NCBI RefSeq assembly: GCF_033153115.1
Contig: NW_026889801.1
Coordinates: 6,200,001-6,264,000, forward strand
Length of the DNA stretch: 64,000 bases
Direction of reading: 5' to 3'
Origin: Saccostrea echinata
Lineage: Eukaryota
Every line of letters begins with the position of its first letter. The first letter of the stretch is position 1. Positions 10,942-26,657 of this stretch are shown piece by piece. The notes beneath the pieces are model-generated. The model did no database searches. It saw nothing but the letters and a program-made list of their open reading frames with translations, and had not been told where the DNA came from. Both the position numbers and the translations under genes were made by a program.

Positions 10942-11993
10942 ATGAAGAAATATATTCTAATTACTTTTTCTTTTATAGTGTATAAATTTGCTCTTTCCAC
11001 CAATCACAGGTAAAAACAGTTATTTCAATTGTTTTGCATTTTCTGAAATTGATTTCTATTTTATCAATTTCAGGTAATTCATCATGATTAATTTTAAATT
11101 TCTTTAGTCGTCAGATATCTCTTTGCTATGCAGGATATTTCTGGAGCAAACAAAATGCAACATGTGAAAGTAGGTCATTTTTGTTTTCATTATTATTGGA
11201 ATTTTGTCTCAGTGTTTTTCTTGGCTTTTTAACAATACTGAATTTCTTTCTTAATATATAGAGTGTCCTGTTGGTTACCATAATATAAACTGCTCTGAAA
11301 AGTGCAAATATCCTAGCTTTGGAGAAGATTGTCAGGGCGGGTGCAAATGTAGAAAAAATCTATGTGATTTTGTACTAGGATGCCTTGAACAGAGAAGTAA
11401 AGATACAAGACTTTTTTTTGTAATTATACCGGTTATACATGTACATGTATAATGAAAAATACTATATTTATCACTTACCTTTTTTTTTAGCTAAAAGGTA
11501 TTTTGGAACAACTATCGTATCTGATAACACTGTGAGTACCAAAGAACTAACAATACAAACAGCCAAGATGATAAGTACAGAAAAAGCGCATCAGACTAAA
11601 GCAGACTTCATTTTGTACGGTATTTTTATCTTAGTGGGAGTTTTCGTGATATTGTTTGGTGTTTTTGTCGCTACTTATCTTTATAAACAATGCTTTCGAA
11701 AAAGGCCTACTAGCAATAGATACGGCACAGTCGAATTAACTGCCATTGACAGGTACAAAGAACTGGAAAATCAGAAAATTGTGATAAATGATTCAAGTGA
11801 AAATATGTCACCAGATCCTGTCTATCTCGATCCAATTTGTGTTGAGCCACCATTTAATAACTCTGAATCAGACCAATCGTCATTGCAGAAAGCAAGTGTA
11901 TATCTAGAGGTAATCCACGGTACCAGTAGTGAGGAATCATTGCCTTCTGATGTTGAAAACTCTCCTACTGGTTATGTTGATGTCATACAGTAA
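10942..11993 (+). CDS. Small type-I membrane receptor A: EGF-like (MEGF10/SREC-type) ectodomain, TM helix, tyrosine-motif tail (~255 aa)
   Basis: Exons 10942-11009 (signal-like MKKYILITFSFIVYKFALS), 11108-11169 (CYAGYFWSKQNATCE), 11262-11396 (CPVGYHNINCSEKCKYPSFGEDCQGGCKCRKNLCDFVLGC) and 11491-11993 (stalk, TM FILYGIFILVGVFVILFGVFVATYLY, tail). All introns are GT-AG and the exons join in frame. AATAAA at about 12047. Confidence 0.85.
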
Positions 11994-12654
11994 GTTTCAG
12001 GGAATTGCTGTCAATCAGTTTGTAAATGTACTTTTTTGTATTAATGAATAAATTTTATTCTTTTTAAGTAAATACACAAAAAAGAAAAAAATGTTATATT
12101 ATGCATTGTCTGGAAAAGTTATTCGGTTTCATATTGAATAAGCATTTGAAGTATTAGCAGGCACGTAGAAATTAACCCCTCCCCCCCACTTCTTTTCTGA
12201 GAGTAGGCTTGTGCTGTTAACTATTTTTAATAAAATGAATTCAGGTAATAATTGATTTCACACTGAACCTTTTTGCTGCAGTATGGTCGAGTCTTTCCAC
12301 GTTATTGTAACTATGTAACTTTCTATCGAATATGAAAGTATGACCCCACCCCCGCAATAATTCATTGACAAGAACTTCGATTTTTGAAAAAGTTTACTCC
12401 CAAACACACTTTCTCTTAAGGTTTCACTCCGTTTAAAAACCTGGTTAGGGCAACGTCTCTTACCGCAAGGAAATTAAATAGAAACTTGATAGAAATATTT
12501 GAAACACAAGTGAAAAGCGATTGATACATGTGTATAATATTAATGTACTTTGAAACAATTACATCTGTACATACATGATAAGAAAGTAAGTGCATCCAAC
12601 CAATTTTACAGTTAAGAATTTGATACACGAAGTATATCTTTTAATACAATGATA

Positions 12655-13200
12655 TATATGGAGATAACGAACAGTATTCAAGCTCAAAAGTCCATTAAAC
12701 GATACAAAATAGGAGCAGAGCAAACACGGACCTCCAAACATAGGTGAGATCAGGTGCCATGGAGGAGTGAGCATCCCCTGTCGACCGGTCACAACCGCCA
12801 TGTGCTCCTTGTCATGATTGGGAAATAATGGAAAAATCCGTCGACAATTCAATGTGTAAATAATGGCCTAACAATGAGTATGAAAAACGTCAGTCAGCAT
12901 TTGACTCAATGATAAATTGTATTTGCTGACAAGGTCATTGTATCGACCATAGAACTTACGAAATGATGACTTTAAACGAGACAGCTGATATTCTTGTTTC
13001 ATCAACTTGTTCGTCAATAATTTACTTCGTTTTAGAAATTGTACATACGTAGAGCATGCTCTTGCGTATCGATCAACTGAGAGATATATACCCCGTATGC
13101 AGGTGATGAAGGTATATTGCTGCATAAGTAAGGGAAGTTGACAATTGAAAAGTTAAAGTCATCACGTTTGTCATATACCTTGGTTGTTAGATTACAAGCA
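12655..13200 (-). mobile_element. Penelope-like (Naiad-type) retroelement 3' remnant
   Basis: Minus strand reads TTKVYDKRDDFNFSIVNFPYLCSNIPSSPAYGVYISQLI / RYARACSTYVQFLKRSKLLTNKLMKQEY with one frameshift. This resembles the post-RT region of Penelope-like elements and is followed by the conserved 3' non-coding block. Confidence 0.75.
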
Positions 13201-23220: not shown

Positions 23221-23227
<7 letters not shown>

Positions 23228-25007
23228 GAATTCAGTATGTATGTAAAAAAAAATTTGCAATTTCTAAAACGAAAGTAGAAATAATGATGCATTATTAGTA
23301 TATCAATAAATTCTTTCATAATTTCGGCTTGCAGCATGTAGTTTTCTAGAAATTGCTCATGTTGATATACATTATATATATATAAACACAATGTGCATGA
23401 AAAGTTCGATTAACTATCTGTAAAAATAACATGTTATTGAAGTTTAACCTACCATTTACCTGGCAGAGGACATTATATGTACCTTCAATGCGCAAACGCA
23501 ACGACCTTTGGTAGAAAGATAATAAAAATAATAGTTACTCTATTAAAATCACAAGAAGACAAAGGTTTTTTATATATATGTTACCAAAATAATATTTGTC
23601 TAAAGTATATTTTATTTGATGTTTTCTGAATTGTATTGAGATTAGAATAAATAACACCTTGCATTCTGACCTACTTTTTGTTAACCCGTCTTGGTTAACT
23701 GGAAAGTACAATCAATTTAAAAATACCCAGGTATAAGATATATCTGTGATGACGGCTTTAAAAGGGTATCTGATATAATGACCTCGTAAGGTATAATTAC
23801 GAACAATTTGTAGCATTAACTAATGTTCATTTTTAACTTATTTTATCACTATATTGTTAAGAAGAGAAACATTGTAGTGAAGTTATCGGAATGAATTTTC
23901 AGTACGTGTAGTTTATTTATTCACAAAAGCTTTTTAATTGACATTTTTATCCAAAAAAAAAAAAACATTTTAATCAAAGCGTCAGTCATATTCATGGGAG
24001 AAATTTATATGACTAGAAATAGTTTAAGTAACAAGAATCTCTAGAGTGCATAGAAGAATGTCAGACGATAATTATTATTATTAATAATAAAATTAACATT
24101 TGACATAAAAAAAAAAAGAATCGCTGTTAATGCTATATTTGCGCAGATAAAAACATTTCTAATTACAAGAGCTGCAACATTTTACTTGTATTTAGAAAGA
24201 AAACATTTTTCCTATCAAAATATTTATCATAACAACATATTGCTCCGAATGAAATATAATGCACTGTATGAAGAAACGTAAATGTCATTTCTTCCTCAAC
24301 TGACAAAGTTATATTAAAAGATGCCAATGATCCATAGCGCTCACGTAAACACCATTTCGTGGTAGATTTAGTAAAAATTGTTTATCTGGTATTGGAGAAG
24401 TTGAGAGTACATGTCTGGAAAAATATTGTACAACAGTTTTTAGACTGATGGACGAAATACATTGATCAGAAAATGTCACTTGAGACTTTGGCTTAGGTGA
24501 GTTTAAAAGAAGCTCAACACAATAAATACTTATTTTTAATCTGATATTTATTTCCCCGTAAATACAATTTTAAATGTGAAGACAGTTGTTCAAATGTTGA
24601 AAATGCAGTCAATATACAATAACCGTACAGCTATCAATGAAATATGCGTAGAATTTTTAAGTCAAACTTATCGCAAGCACTTTTTAATGTTTATTTTCAT
24701 AATTTTGATTAAATAAAAATAATAATAATAATAACAATAATATGTTTTCCAACATTATAATTACTAAATACATGTATTTCCGTTGTAGTCATACTTATTT
24801 TAATTAACGGCATAACATTTGAAAAAGGATAACATACAAATATTTCATTTCAGTTATGTAATTGAAATTAAACCTACGCACTCAATGTTTTAATTGCAAG
24901 TTTCGATGAAAAGGAAGGAATTAAATGAATCGGAAATAAAGCAGTTTAAACATAATGTCACCAAATAATATACAAAATGGATAATTTTAAAATGGACTGA
25001 TAAAATA

Positions 25008-26657
25008 ATGATTTATTTTTCTGTCTTCGTGATCAGCCTGTCTCATACTAGATTTGTTGCTGGACAATTATGCCGGGGTTATATTTTTCGTCAAATTTTC
25101 TTGTGCTATATCTTTTTTTTTTTTTACTTTCTGTGAAATTAATACTTTTTATGTTTTCAAAGGGTAAATGGTCCTGTTTGCTGTGCAGGATTTTGGATGA
25201 ATACAACCACAAAGGTTTGCGAAGGTAAGACCAATTCTTACGAAATTCCTAGATTCTTACATTTTTTCGGTTTATGTCTGAATTATTTGCAGTTTGTGAT
25301 ACGACTCAAATTAAAACTATAGTAAAGCATACATATACAATCTTTACTTTCAGCTTGCCCAGTAGGATATCTTGGATTCAATTGCTCTAAAGCGTGTTCT
25401 TTTCCGAGCTATGGAAAGGATTGTCAAAAAGACTGCAGATGTGAAAAACATCTTTGCCATCACAGTCATGGATGTATTGCCTACACAAGTTAGTACAATG
25501 ATTAGTATAAAATCCAATCTAAAATGTTATTTGAAATTAGATGGTCAATTAACAAGTGTACATATGTACATATTCTAGTTTATAAAGATTTGAGATATGT
25601 ATTCGTAAGTAAAACTTCGAACCATTAAGCATACATTCATAACATTTATTGTCATTCATGTTTTACACTTTTTACAAGCATATTAATATAACACAGGCAT
25701 TTGTAGAAGTTGCAGCTTCTACTCTGTTTAAGCAGGCTGTGAGAGGTTTGCAATCTACCTTTCTCAAATGTGTTGTATGATTTTTTTTTCTGATTTGCTA
25801 TACCCCTTGCAACTTTTTACCAATTTAAAGAAGAGGGATTGAATATATTTCTTTTTCGTTATTCATGGAATACAAATGAAAGTACAATTTTTGGTAATAT
25901 AAGAAATTCATTTAAGGAATGTTTAGTGTATCATTCATAGTAAATTTATTTATCTTTTACATCATATCCTGTAGAACCAATCTTTTCATCAAACGAATGG
26001 GAAACGACACCAAGAGCATGGATTATAAATAATATTACAAAGGGTGTTTCAACGACTACTGAACCAAGCATAACCATTACCATTTCCACTTATAATCCAG
26101 ACAATTTTTCAGTAAATACTGAGTTTATTATTTACATCGGAATCATTTTGATTGGACTGTTTGTTTTATTTTTTGGATTATGTGTCGTCACATATGTGTA
26201 TCAAAAGTGTACTAAAAGAGCAGACATCAGAAATGGACTCGAAAGCAATCTAATCGACCAGTTTGTACAGTATAAGACTCTTAATTTTGCAATTGGAGAG
26301 CAAGAGTTTATGATAAACCAAGAGCAAAGAGGGAGATTAAAATCTGATCAGACATATTTGTCTCCCGTGTTTGATGGCGGTACTTCGTACGAGGAAGTTG
26401 AAACACGAAATGATCCTGTGAACGAAAACATGGAAGATTTTGATGAATCCATTGAAATAGCACAGGAAACAATTCCACCAACAAACATGGAGGAAGAGGG
26501 CTCAGACTTGGCACCAGAACATCCCCCGAAACATATTTATGTAAAGATTGTGGATGACGACGAATCAGAATATATAAACAAAAACGAAAATATTGAAGAT
26601 TTCAGTAATAAGAGGCATAGTCCTGATGGCAGAGAATCCGGATATGTCAATTCATAG
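25008..26657 (+). CDS. Small type-I membrane receptor B, paralog of receptor A
   Basis: Exons 25163-25224 (CCAGFWMNTTTKVCE; 62 nt, as in A), 25354-25488 (CPVGYLGFNCSKACSFPSYGKDCQKDCRCEKHLCHHSHGC; 135 nt, as in A) and 25975-26657 (T-rich stalk, TM FIIYIGIILIGLFVLFFGLCVVTYVY, Tyr-motif tail). A signal-like first exon starts at ATG 25008 (MIYFSVFVISLSHTRFVAG), but its donor phase is unresolved. Confidence 0.8.

Follow-up and report, generated by a model that had tools for sequence, protein, structure and literature searches.

A predicted membrane-anchored nSTAND3–ankyrin gene neighbours two tyrosine-tailed receptor genes in the oyster Saccostrea echinata

We analysed a 64,000-nt window of the Saccostrea echinata genome (GCF_033153115.1, contig NW_026889801.1, positions 6,200,001 to 6,264,000; coordinates below are those of the window), in which gene models built from the sequence place, in order, a receptor gene on the plus strand (receptor A), a STAND gene on the minus strand (TM-STAND) and a second receptor gene on the plus strand (receptor B). 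All three products are predicted single-pass surface proteins. The exon models thus bear out the layout proposed in an earlier sequence-only reading, which interpreted the three genes as a co-regulated module in which tyrosine-motif receptors modulate or partner TM-STAND. A and TM-STAND lie tail to tail, with 3,111 nt separating their stop codons, and TM-STAND and B lie head to head, with 4,295 nt from the ATG at 20712 to the ATG at 25008. Because any minus-strand gene between two plus-strand genes automatically gives one arrangement of each kind, this combination of orientations is not beyond chance. TM-STAND is the only STAND gene in the window, where tblastn and HMM searches found no further copy of either family, and Rfam at gathering thresholds returned no match in positions 9000–30000. 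A literature search, covering mostly work outside subscription journals and the supplements of one paper, found no publication on the locus, on six gene ids queried or on linkage of these families.

The TM-STAND gene runs on the minus strand from the ATG at 20712 to a stop at 15104 in nine exons, all spliced GT–AG, and its fully open frame encodes 1,048 amino acids (aa). Exons 1–3 (19775..20712), which are matched by tblastn with full-length homologues, encode a signal peptide (20650–20712) and a cysteine-rich ectodomain (20264–20498 and 19775–19891); exons 4 and 5 (19141..19440) supply a stalk (19314–19440) and a single TM segment without a charged residue (19141–19217); exons 6–8 (18195..18973; individually 18890–18973, 18443–18493 and 18195–18242) form a short charged linker; and exon 9 (15104..17448) encodes an nSTAND3 NTPase, a helical region and ankyrin repeats. 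The nSTAND3 domain (Pfam PF20720) scores 67.4 bits against a cut-off of 27.2, Ank_2 and Ank_4 also exceed their cut-offs, and the sites that we take to be Walker A (aa 307), Walker B (350), sensor-1 (399) and GxP (474) are intact, as is an FxHDS motif (598). A STAND search returned 195 matches; the 120 listed fall into 19 groups at 60% identity, and the individual motifs are present in 107–120 of these 120. All 14 long homologues share the layout of signal peptide, cysteine-rich region, TM, nSTAND3 and ankyrin repeats. The linker, 56 aa and 52% charged here and 37–147 aa and charged in the 14 homologues, contains no death-fold or TRADD-N domain in TM-STAND, and death-fold Pfam domains were absent from all four full-length homologues scanned. 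Run against PDB sequences, the STAND profile gave 286 matches, of which the best 60 fell in the ankyrin region. When a confident model of the ectodomain was compared with solved structures, none of 193 Foldseek matches reached E ≤ 0.001 and none of 48,161 chains reached Z ≥ 2, which does not prove a new fold. Exon 9 is 100% identical to RefSeq S. echinata LOC133204307, a model that begins only in exon 7 and omits exons 1–6; with its membrane-anchoring half missing from the annotation, such a gene is easily filed as cytosolic.

Receptor A (10942..11993, plus strand) comprises exons at 10942–11009, 11108–11169 (62 nt), 11262–11396 (135 nt) and 11491–11993, joined by GT–AG introns throughout. It encodes 255 aa, consisting of a signal peptide, a cysteine block with a MEGF10/Draper-like EGF-type unit, a Ser/Thr-rich stalk, a TM segment at about aa 129–153 and a 102-aa tail, and its orthologue is S. 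cucullata LOC134232813 (82% identity over 254 aa). An acceptor-like site at 10931 lies 10–11 nt ahead of the start codon, a spacing shared with TM-STAND and found at only 2–3% of ATGs in the window, and this site suggests that A has an untranslated exon upstream.

Exons 2–4 of receptor B (25163..26657, plus strand; 25163–25224, 62 nt; 25354–25488, 135 nt; 25975–26657) encode 292 aa, with a cysteine block, an EGF-type unit, a stalk, a TM segment and a 151-aa tail. Its probable signal-peptide exon lies at 25008..25077 and ends in C-x-G, a pattern that 27 of 36 relatives also show ahead of their cysteine block. In the assembly, the frames of this candidate exon and of exon 2 differ by one base: the exon beginning at ATG 25008 closes at the sole good GT donor (25077) in phase 1, and exon 2 requires phase 2. 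No alternative acceptor for exon 2 was found within 25100–25180, and the sole other open in-frame ATG encodes two residues. A first coding exon at about 22943–23015, with a strong donor in the right phase, was also considered and rejected, having no in-frame ATG ahead of a stop. The break sits within a run of four G, so that an assembly error and a null allele could both account for it. If it is genuine, B might be a recent pseudogene within a decaying or presence/absence cluster, the arrangement being a transient stage in the turnover of genes by birth and death. In line with this, the S. cucullata orthologue of B, LOC134232824, is likewise a 5′-partial model, neither the A nor the B protein of the window was found as an annotated protein in database searches, the RefSeq STAND model is truncated and the region is rich in repeats. 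We nevertheless regard decay as improbable: exons 2–4 of B are open across all 292 codons, splice canonically and share 81% identity with that orthologue, the frames of A and TM-STAND are fully open, and homopolymer runs are where assembly errors are common.

The sequence-only reading had called A and B paralogous receptors with identical internal exon sizes (62 and 135 nt) and alignable TM segments. Exon models and alignment confirm the sizes and the TM alignment, and the two proteins share 52% identity over 42 aa of the cysteine exons, 29% over 70 aa of exon 4 (E 5e-7) and about 30% overall. A and B are thus related genes of one family, but not sisters: in the tree each has closer relatives on starred branches, and grouping A and B as one clade is rejected (p-AU 0.000345). 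With cysteine spacing used as a protein proxy for exon size, 36 of the 37 sequences that have that block repeat the pattern of the 62-nt exon, and 76 of 155 sequences repeat that of the 135-nt exon; by this proxy the shared exon sizes mark the whole family. That family is large, the receptor profile matching 1,450 clusters (at 50% identity) at E ≤ 0.001 and 262 at 1e-10, and the best three Atlas clusters are mollusc-dominated, with 74–132 members. The label of EGF receptor holds through resemblance via relatives and not through a domain match, as Pfam EGF matches neither the A and B exons nor the full-length orthologues and the PDB gave a weak EGF match (E 0.0076). One of the 153 receptor matches, P0181, combines EGF units and a TM segment with a cysteine-rich domain of the STAND type, a hint that the two families intermingle or lie together at other loci.

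The tails of A and B had been described as ITIM/ITSM-type, and each indeed has one match to either motif. The tail of A carries YKEL, YLDP, SVYLEV (ITIM-like, conserved) and TGYVDV (ITSM, not conserved); that of B carries VQYKTL (ITIM-like, conserved), YLSP, TSYEEV (ITSM, not conserved), IYVKI and two YxN sites. Co-occurrence of ITIM and ITSM is rare by shuffling (fractions of 0.008 and 0.005 of 20,000 shuffles for the two tails), but 30% and 20% of shuffles yield an ITIM by itself. Comparison with relatives retains the ITIM-like site, one per tail and at different positions in A and B, but not the ITSM. SVYLEV is found in A and two of three A-like relatives and VQYKTL in B and two of three B-like relatives, and the ITIM pattern [ILVS]xYxx[ILV] occurs in 25 of 66 tails across the family against 12.1 expected (4 of 20 against 1.5 among ectodomain-selected matches). 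The ITSM, a motif of receptors of the SLAM/PD-1 type, appears in none of six relatives, the orthologues of A and B included, and TxYxx[IV] in 3 of 66 family members against 2.0 expected. Three tail tyrosines are invariant in all five aligned relatives, and A, B and the six relatives all contain a single YxxL and no NPxY or ITAM. YxN, a Grb2-type site, occurs in 21 of 66 tails against 19.7 expected, and for want of this enrichment we give it no weight.

The tail-to-tail gap (11994..15103) contains dispersed repeats at about 12650–12977 and 14002–14310, with copies elsewhere in the window. In the head-to-head gap (20713..25007), 40% is occupied by a non-coding element at 20960..22696 whose 67-nt terminal inverted repeats are 91% identical, inverted ends that make it appear transposon-like; a smaller inverted-repeat element is nested within it at about 21815–22024. 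Two acceptor-like minus-strand sites (20722 and 20799), just upstream of the TM-STAND ATG, suggest that the gene has an untranslated first exon and that its transcription may start further into the gap, possibly much nearer B than 4.3 kb, so that a promoter shared with B is conceivable. A bidirectional promoter might then drive co-expression of TM-STAND and B in the same cells, with no binding between the two products and with A a bystander. Their head-to-head orientation agrees with this, as does the finding that their S. cucullata orthologues carry consecutive gene ids (LOC134232825 and LOC134232824) and are assigned to a contig of the same length, as would a donor-like site at 23460, use of which would make the 1.7-kb element intronic and bring the TM-STAND start to about 1.5 kb from the B ATG. 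With a score of 8.2, however, that donor does not stand out from chance: such sites occur at 0.33 per kb, and about 1.4 are expected in the gap. Consensus sites for ISRE, NF-κB and AP-1 gave no match in the gap and STAT sites number 2 against 4.4 expected, so that immune transcription-factor sites are not enriched, and the frame of B is broken at exon 1 as assembled. We consider a shared promoter unlikely.

Orthologues of A, TM-STAND and B in S. cucullata are 81–84% identical at the protein level and are each assigned to a contig of the same length (469,844 nt), on which order and strand are not visible; linkage in one congener at this identity is what ordinary synteny gives. In S. echinata, LOC133200403 is 75% identical to A and lies on another contig (1,691,083 versus 16,830,456 nt). 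The 120 STAND matches listed of 195 include no second gene from S. echinata, which is weak evidence given the 75 further matches and the fact that most of those listed are unnamed. Linkage in two species, the surface location predicted for all three proteins, the need of a STAND protein without its own effector domain for a partner and the union of both ectodomain types in P0181 would suit a physical module, in which TM-STAND binds or guards the receptors and senses, through its ankyrin repeats, whether their tails are phosphorylated or intact. Against it, the TM segments lack charged residues of the kind used by paired activating receptors, an EGF unit occurs in none of the 120 listed STAND matches, the ITSMs are not conserved, the close copy of A lies on another contig, and the plant pairs invoked as precedent unite two NLRs, one with an integrated decoy, in the available text on them (PMC6187137). 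We give such binding little credence. Just as improbable is a more novel reading, a linked guard at the plasma membrane. In it, one bidirectional promoter would serve both the effector-less nSTAND3–ankyrin protein, whose ectodomain would have no known fold, and a miniature Draper-like receptor; the STAND protein would monitor the phosphotyrosine tail of that receptor and oligomerize on pathogen disturbance, the two families trading ectodomain exons as in P0181.

Of the module first proposed, the paralogous receptors, the conserved tail tyrosines and the linked orthologues stand; the family-wide exon sizes, the non-sister relationship of A and B, the unconserved ITSMs, the possibly broken B, the copy of A on another contig, the inverted-repeat element and the missing ISRE, NF-κB and AP-1 sites speak against it. 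We favour the explanation that the three neighbours are single-pass receptor genes of two oyster families, both heavily expanded, and that they are co-inherited within Saccostrea, each probably signalling by its own machinery. A and B would be old paralogues and miniature Draper/MEGF10-like receptors. By analogy with Draper and MEGF10, a ligand would cluster A or B, a Src-type kinase would phosphorylate the conserved tail tyrosines (YKxL, YLxP, V/I-Y-L/V-E/K-V/I and a C-terminal YVx) and SH2 proteins would dock there, the ITIM-like site possibly recruiting an SHP2-type phosphatase. TM-STAND would act as a type I membrane STAND ATPase, its NTPase motifs being intact, in which clustering of the cysteine-rich ectodomain or binding by the ankyrin repeats may trigger nucleotide exchange and oligomerization at the membrane. 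Because it lacks a death-fold or TRADD-N domain, it would have to relay its signal through a partner; relatives of similar architecture that do bear an adaptor, or a protein bound by the ankyrin repeats, are the most plausible candidates.

If the triad did form a module, animals would have an uncommon counterpart to the linked immune pairs of plants, and those who breed oysters or study their immunity could test a defined locus, sensor and brake together, against OsHV-1 or Vibrio; the evidence does not reach that far. The more notable part of the locus is TM-STAND, not the triad. Independently of any module, it represents a sizeable oyster family of single-pass receptors with an nSTAND3 ATPase and ankyrin repeats inside and no death-fold adaptor, and raises the testable question of how signalling across the membrane works for a STAND protein that lacks an effector domain.

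Clusters of vertebrate paired receptors, including KIR/LILR, Siglec, SIRP and CD300, also contain paralogous single-pass receptors with ITIM-like tails, and their activating partners have a charged TM residue or an ITAM and a near-identical ectodomain. A and B differ in having the same kind of tail and no short-tailed form with a charged TM residue; with uncharged TM segments, no ITAM and about 30% identity, an identity that does not imply a shared ligand, the proposed likeness to activating/inhibitory pairs breaks down. The likeness to plant sensor/helper NLRs, also drawn earlier, extends to divergent orientation beside a STAND-class ATPase gene and fails on the defining point: RRS1/RPS4 and RGA4/RGA5, as the available text describes them, are NLR–NLR pairs that form a complex (PMC6187137), whereas the partner here is an unrelated surface receptor beside a sole STAND gene. 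Anthozoan NLRs resemble TM-STAND in that a STAND-class immune ATPase is membrane-anchored by an N-terminal TM region, although those described in the available text have 3–5 N-terminal TM helices (PMC5094078) and TM-STAND combines nSTAND3 and ankyrin repeats with one TM segment and a folded ectodomain. A and B share with Draper, CED-1, MEGF10-11 and PEAR1 a cysteine block with an EGF-type unit, a single TM segment and a tyrosine tail, and their Atlas feature score to those clusters (0.81–0.85) is a lead only; Draper-II, an ITIM form, binds Corkscrew/SHP2 according to the available text (PMC8092387). Unlike these engulfment receptors, A and B have about one EGF-type unit rather than many, no full EMI or Pfam EGF domain and neither NPxY nor ITAM, and belong to a mollusc-dominated expansion. 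The closest counterparts of TM-STAND are the receptor-like TRADD-N/nSTAND3/ankyrin proteins of Crassostrea, such as C. virginica LOC111106874 and LOC111112665, an oyster lineage-specific expansion proposed to act as surface immune receptors (Kaur et al. 2021, PMC8195603). Both have a signal/TM segment, a cysteine-rich ectodomain (likened by architecture only), a TM segment, nSTAND3 and ankyrin repeats. Among the 9 of 17 nSTAND3 mentions covered, the published proteins are 1,682–2,660 aa long and place TRADD-N, accompanied by a helical region or HEPN, between the TM segment and STAND; TM-STAND has its charged linker where they have DED and/or TRADD-N. Judged by domain content and as far as that text describes, TM-STAND is a simpler, adaptor-less version of the published oyster architecture.

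The triad is real, and we regard it as ordinary until shown otherwise. Exon models with borders placed at GT–AG junctions recover the layout described in the sequence-only reading, in which a membrane-anchored nSTAND3–ankyrin receptor gene (TM-STAND) lies between two small single-pass receptors with tyrosine tails (receptors A and B). Receptor A occupies 10942–11993 on the + strand (4 exons, 255 amino acids), TM-STAND runs from 20712 to 15104 on the − strand (9 exons, 1048 amino acids) and exons 2–4 of receptor B span 25163–26657 on the + strand (292 amino acids). The long − strand exon at 15107–17446 is 100% identical to the Saccostrea echinata RefSeq protein LOC133204307. 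A and TM-STAND stand tail to tail with a spacing of 3,111 nt, and TM-STAND and B head to head, their start codons (ATG 20712 and ATG 25008) being 4,295 nt apart; any − strand gene flanked by two + strand genes must face one of them head to head. The window holds no additional copy of either the receptor or the STAND family. On balance, we favour reading A, TM-STAND and B as independent receptors that belong to two expanded families and were passed down as one block.

A and B are paralogues, as proposed, with 52% identity in the cysteine exon, 29% over 70 amino acids in exon 4 and about 30% overall across 193 amino acids. They also share the internal exon sizes of 62 and 135 nt, just as had been noted. 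With cysteine spacing as a protein proxy for exon size in relatives, we observed the pattern of the 62-nt exon in 36 of 37 sequences having that block and the pattern of the 135-nt exon in 76 of 155; equal exon sizes are therefore a sign of family membership and not of a special A–B pair. At E ≤ 0.001, a five-sequence profile retrieved 1,450 clusters built at 50% identity. Two trees, a quick one with 68 rows and a more careful one with 22 rows hand-picked from the first, both place A and B within one subfamily, each with closer relatives on branches marked by a star. A single A + B clade was rejected (p-AU 0.000345), in a test that includes long branches and whose group was picked with the first tree already in view. 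The earlier 'EGF' label holds in part: it draws on a multi-repeat relative with a Pfam EGF match (P0128), a weak PDB match (E 0.0076) and feature scores of 0.81–0.85 to MEGF10/Draper clusters in the Atlas protein-cluster resource, where mollusc-dominated unnamed clusters score higher (0.94–0.97), but the Pfam EGF model has no match in A, B or their orthologues.

The tails of both receptors match the ITIM and ITSM patterns once each. Over 20,000 shuffles, an ITIM by itself turned up at rates of 30% for A and 20% for B, and the pair of motifs at 0.8% and 0.5%, respectively; the two motifs differ in conservation. The ITSMs of A and B occur in none of six relatives, both orthologues included; SVYLEV is retained in two of three A-like relatives and VQYKTL in two of three B-like ones, and tail tyrosines of the YKxL, YLxP and YLEV type are invariant in all 5 aligned relatives. 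Among the 66 of 153 family matches having a TM and a tail, a profile-biased set, ITIMs number 25 versus 12.1 expected, ITSMs 3 versus 2.0 and YLxP, a pattern picked after the alignment was seen, 31 versus 0.8. An ectodomain-selected set (20 of 81 matches having a TM and a tail) yielded 4 ITIMs versus 1.5 expected, 1 ITSM versus 0.3, 1 YLxP versus 0.1 and 13 YxxI/L/V versus 6.0. Taken together, the tail motifs mark A and B as phosphotyrosine-docking receptors with a plausible ITIM, and leave the 'ITSM-type' half of their original description unsupported.

The TM-STAND protein comprises, in order, a signal peptide, a cysteine-rich ectodomain, a stalk, one uncharged TM helix, a charged linker of 56 amino acids, an nSTAND3 NTPase and ankyrin repeats. 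Its nSTAND3 match (Pfam PF20720, 67 bits versus a cut-off of 27.2) has Walker A, Walker B, sensor-1, GxP and FxHDS all intact, and these motifs are present in 107–120 of 120 homologues among the matches listed, which form 19 groups at 60% identity. RefSeq models LOC133204307 and S. cucullata LOC134232825 begin in exon 7 and lack the signal peptide, ectodomain and TM, so that in S. echinata the membrane half (18443–20712, − strand) is missing. The longer model is supported by the 14 of the 120 listed homologues that have a long N terminus, all 14 with a TM and 11–16 cysteines ahead of Walker A; 13 align along almost the whole 1048-amino-acid model at 37–41% and one in two pieces, and their linkers measure 37–147 amino acids. 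An N run lies within intron 2 (19980–20244), and intron 8 holds a short repeat (~17555–17790; second copy at 45336–45422) that, from a tRNA-like box seen by eye, is probably a SINE. The ectodomain (19775–20498, − strand) matches no Pfam family and only mollusc-dominated unnamed Atlas clusters. A fold predicted from 16 sequences for the ectodomain of a Crassostrea virginica paralogue (P0046; mean pLDDT 83, pTM 0.77) found no solved structure at E ≤ 0.001 among 193 Foldseek rows and none at Z ≥ 2 among 48,161 chains, a result that falls short of establishing a novel fold.

Receptor B has a candidate signal-peptide exon that starts at ATG 25008 and ends in a C-x-G pattern that 27 of 36 relatives show ahead of their cysteine block. 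The sole good donor of this exon (25077) gives phase 1 and exon 2 requires phase 2; near exon 2 there is no alternative acceptor and no other useful ATG, and B as assembled is one base out of frame within a run of four G. Either the assembly is wrong at this point or the allele is null, and the S. cucullata B model is likewise 5′-partial. A reading of the locus as a decaying cluster in which B is dead, towards which this break would point, we consider improbable.

An inverted-repeat element with 67-nt inverted ends (20960–22696; 1,737 nt) makes up 40% of the STAND–B gap. It contains tandem repeats of 20 nt and encloses a smaller inverted-repeat element (~21815–22024), is followed in the gap by (TA)39 and is a possible presence/absence polymorphism. 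A consensus scan of the gap identified no ISRE, NF-κB or AP-1 site, and 2 STAT matches versus 4.4 expected. Acceptor-like sites lie 10–11 nt ahead of the STAND and A start codons, as at only 2–3% of window ATGs, according to a splice-site matrix trained on 14 junctions from the A, B and STAND genes. The STAND transcript probably starts deeper in the gap, which would make the start-codon distance of little weight. A donor candidate at 23460 was no better than chance. Sequence settles the candidate bidirectional STAND–B promoter neither for nor against; co-regulation confined to B and STAND, for which the head-to-head orientation speaks and the consensus scan does not, seems unlikely.

S. cucullata orthologues of A (LOC134232813, 82%), B (LOC134232824, 81%) and STAND (LOC134232825, 84%) each lie on a contig of 469,844 nt, and from this equal size, with order and strand not visible, we infer a single contig. 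Of the conserved adjacency to which the proposal of a co-regulated module had looked, this shows the weakest form, probable linkage, but species so closely related inherit a common gene order. The A-like S. echinata gene LOC133200403 (75% identity) is on a 1.69-Mb contig, and the 120 matches listed out of 195 contain no STAND from S. echinata besides the one in the window; the S. cucullata STAND paralogue LOC134241585 stands on a 61,583-nt contig that carries none of seven examined receptors. Both observations argue only weakly against an obligate trio, because the searches are insensitive and most matches are unnamed. In one of 153 receptor matches (P0181, 297 amino acids), a signal peptide and the opening half of a STAND-type ectodomain are followed by roughly 2.5 of the receptor family's EGF-type units and a TM; the join lies near an exon-equivalent border and several cysteines are lost. 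P0181 represents either shuffling of exons or a gene model that wrongly fuses neighbours, and either would link the two families loosely; no EGF unit occurs in the 120 listed STAND matches. A physical guard module, towards which P0181 would lean and from which the separated paralogues lead away, we hold to be very unlikely. We found no literature on this locus or on linkage of these families, and supplements beyond that of PMC8195603 could list such genes.

Two similar C1q-domain genes (~32178–33392, − strand, with the domain split across two frames, and ~34364–35095, + strand) are arranged head to head with about 1 kb between them, 5.5–8.5 kb from receptor B. MEGF10 binds C1q, according to the available portion of PMC8092387, an analogy that offers a lead only. 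The neighbourhood is not purely immune, since it includes a multi-exon acetyl-CoA acetyltransferase-like thiolase gene (~36800–40780, − strand; Pfam Thiolase_N). Beyond a ribosomal protein L44/L36a gene (~46080–48060, + strand; PF00935), a large gene running from 53180 to at least 58770 on the + strand opens with a zinc-ribbon-like N terminus (weak DZR match), includes tandem 27-nt repeats in a charged exon (54385–54577) and may resemble RNF213-type proteins. Satellite-like arrays with 36-nt, 146-nt and ~165-nt units lie at 1033–2107, 7410–8371, 27290–29190 and 59300–63150, and the right end of the window carries several near-identical repeat copies. Directly upstream of receptor A, 42-nt inverted arms about 1 kb apart (9631–10709) mark a probable non-autonomous transposon.

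As independent receptors, A and B would act through tail phosphorylation and SH2 recruitment in a Draper-like manner, and TM-STAND would switch and oligomerise at the membrane and, having no effector domain, would hand its signal to a partner. The analogy once drawn with plant paired NLRs fails: in the available excerpt of PMC6187137, plant pairs are two NLRs, one with an integrated decoy. Draper and MEGF10 have NPxY and ITAM motifs (PMC8092387, in the portion available), whereas A and B are without both. The closest described proteins are those of Kaur et al. 2021 (PMC8195603; available text, and 12 of 13 supplementary files, one incomplete), Crassostrea proteins with a TM, a cysteine-rich region, a second TM, TRADD-N, nSTAND3 and ankyrin repeats; bivalve proteins of this kind are the basis on which nSTAND3 is defined there. 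By contrast, TM-STAND is shorter and has no TRADD-N; judged by its predicted domains, it is a shorter variant of the Crassostrea architecture with no space for DED or TRADD-N, and an adaptor-less TM–nSTAND3–ankyrin receptor is a variant on an architecture already published.
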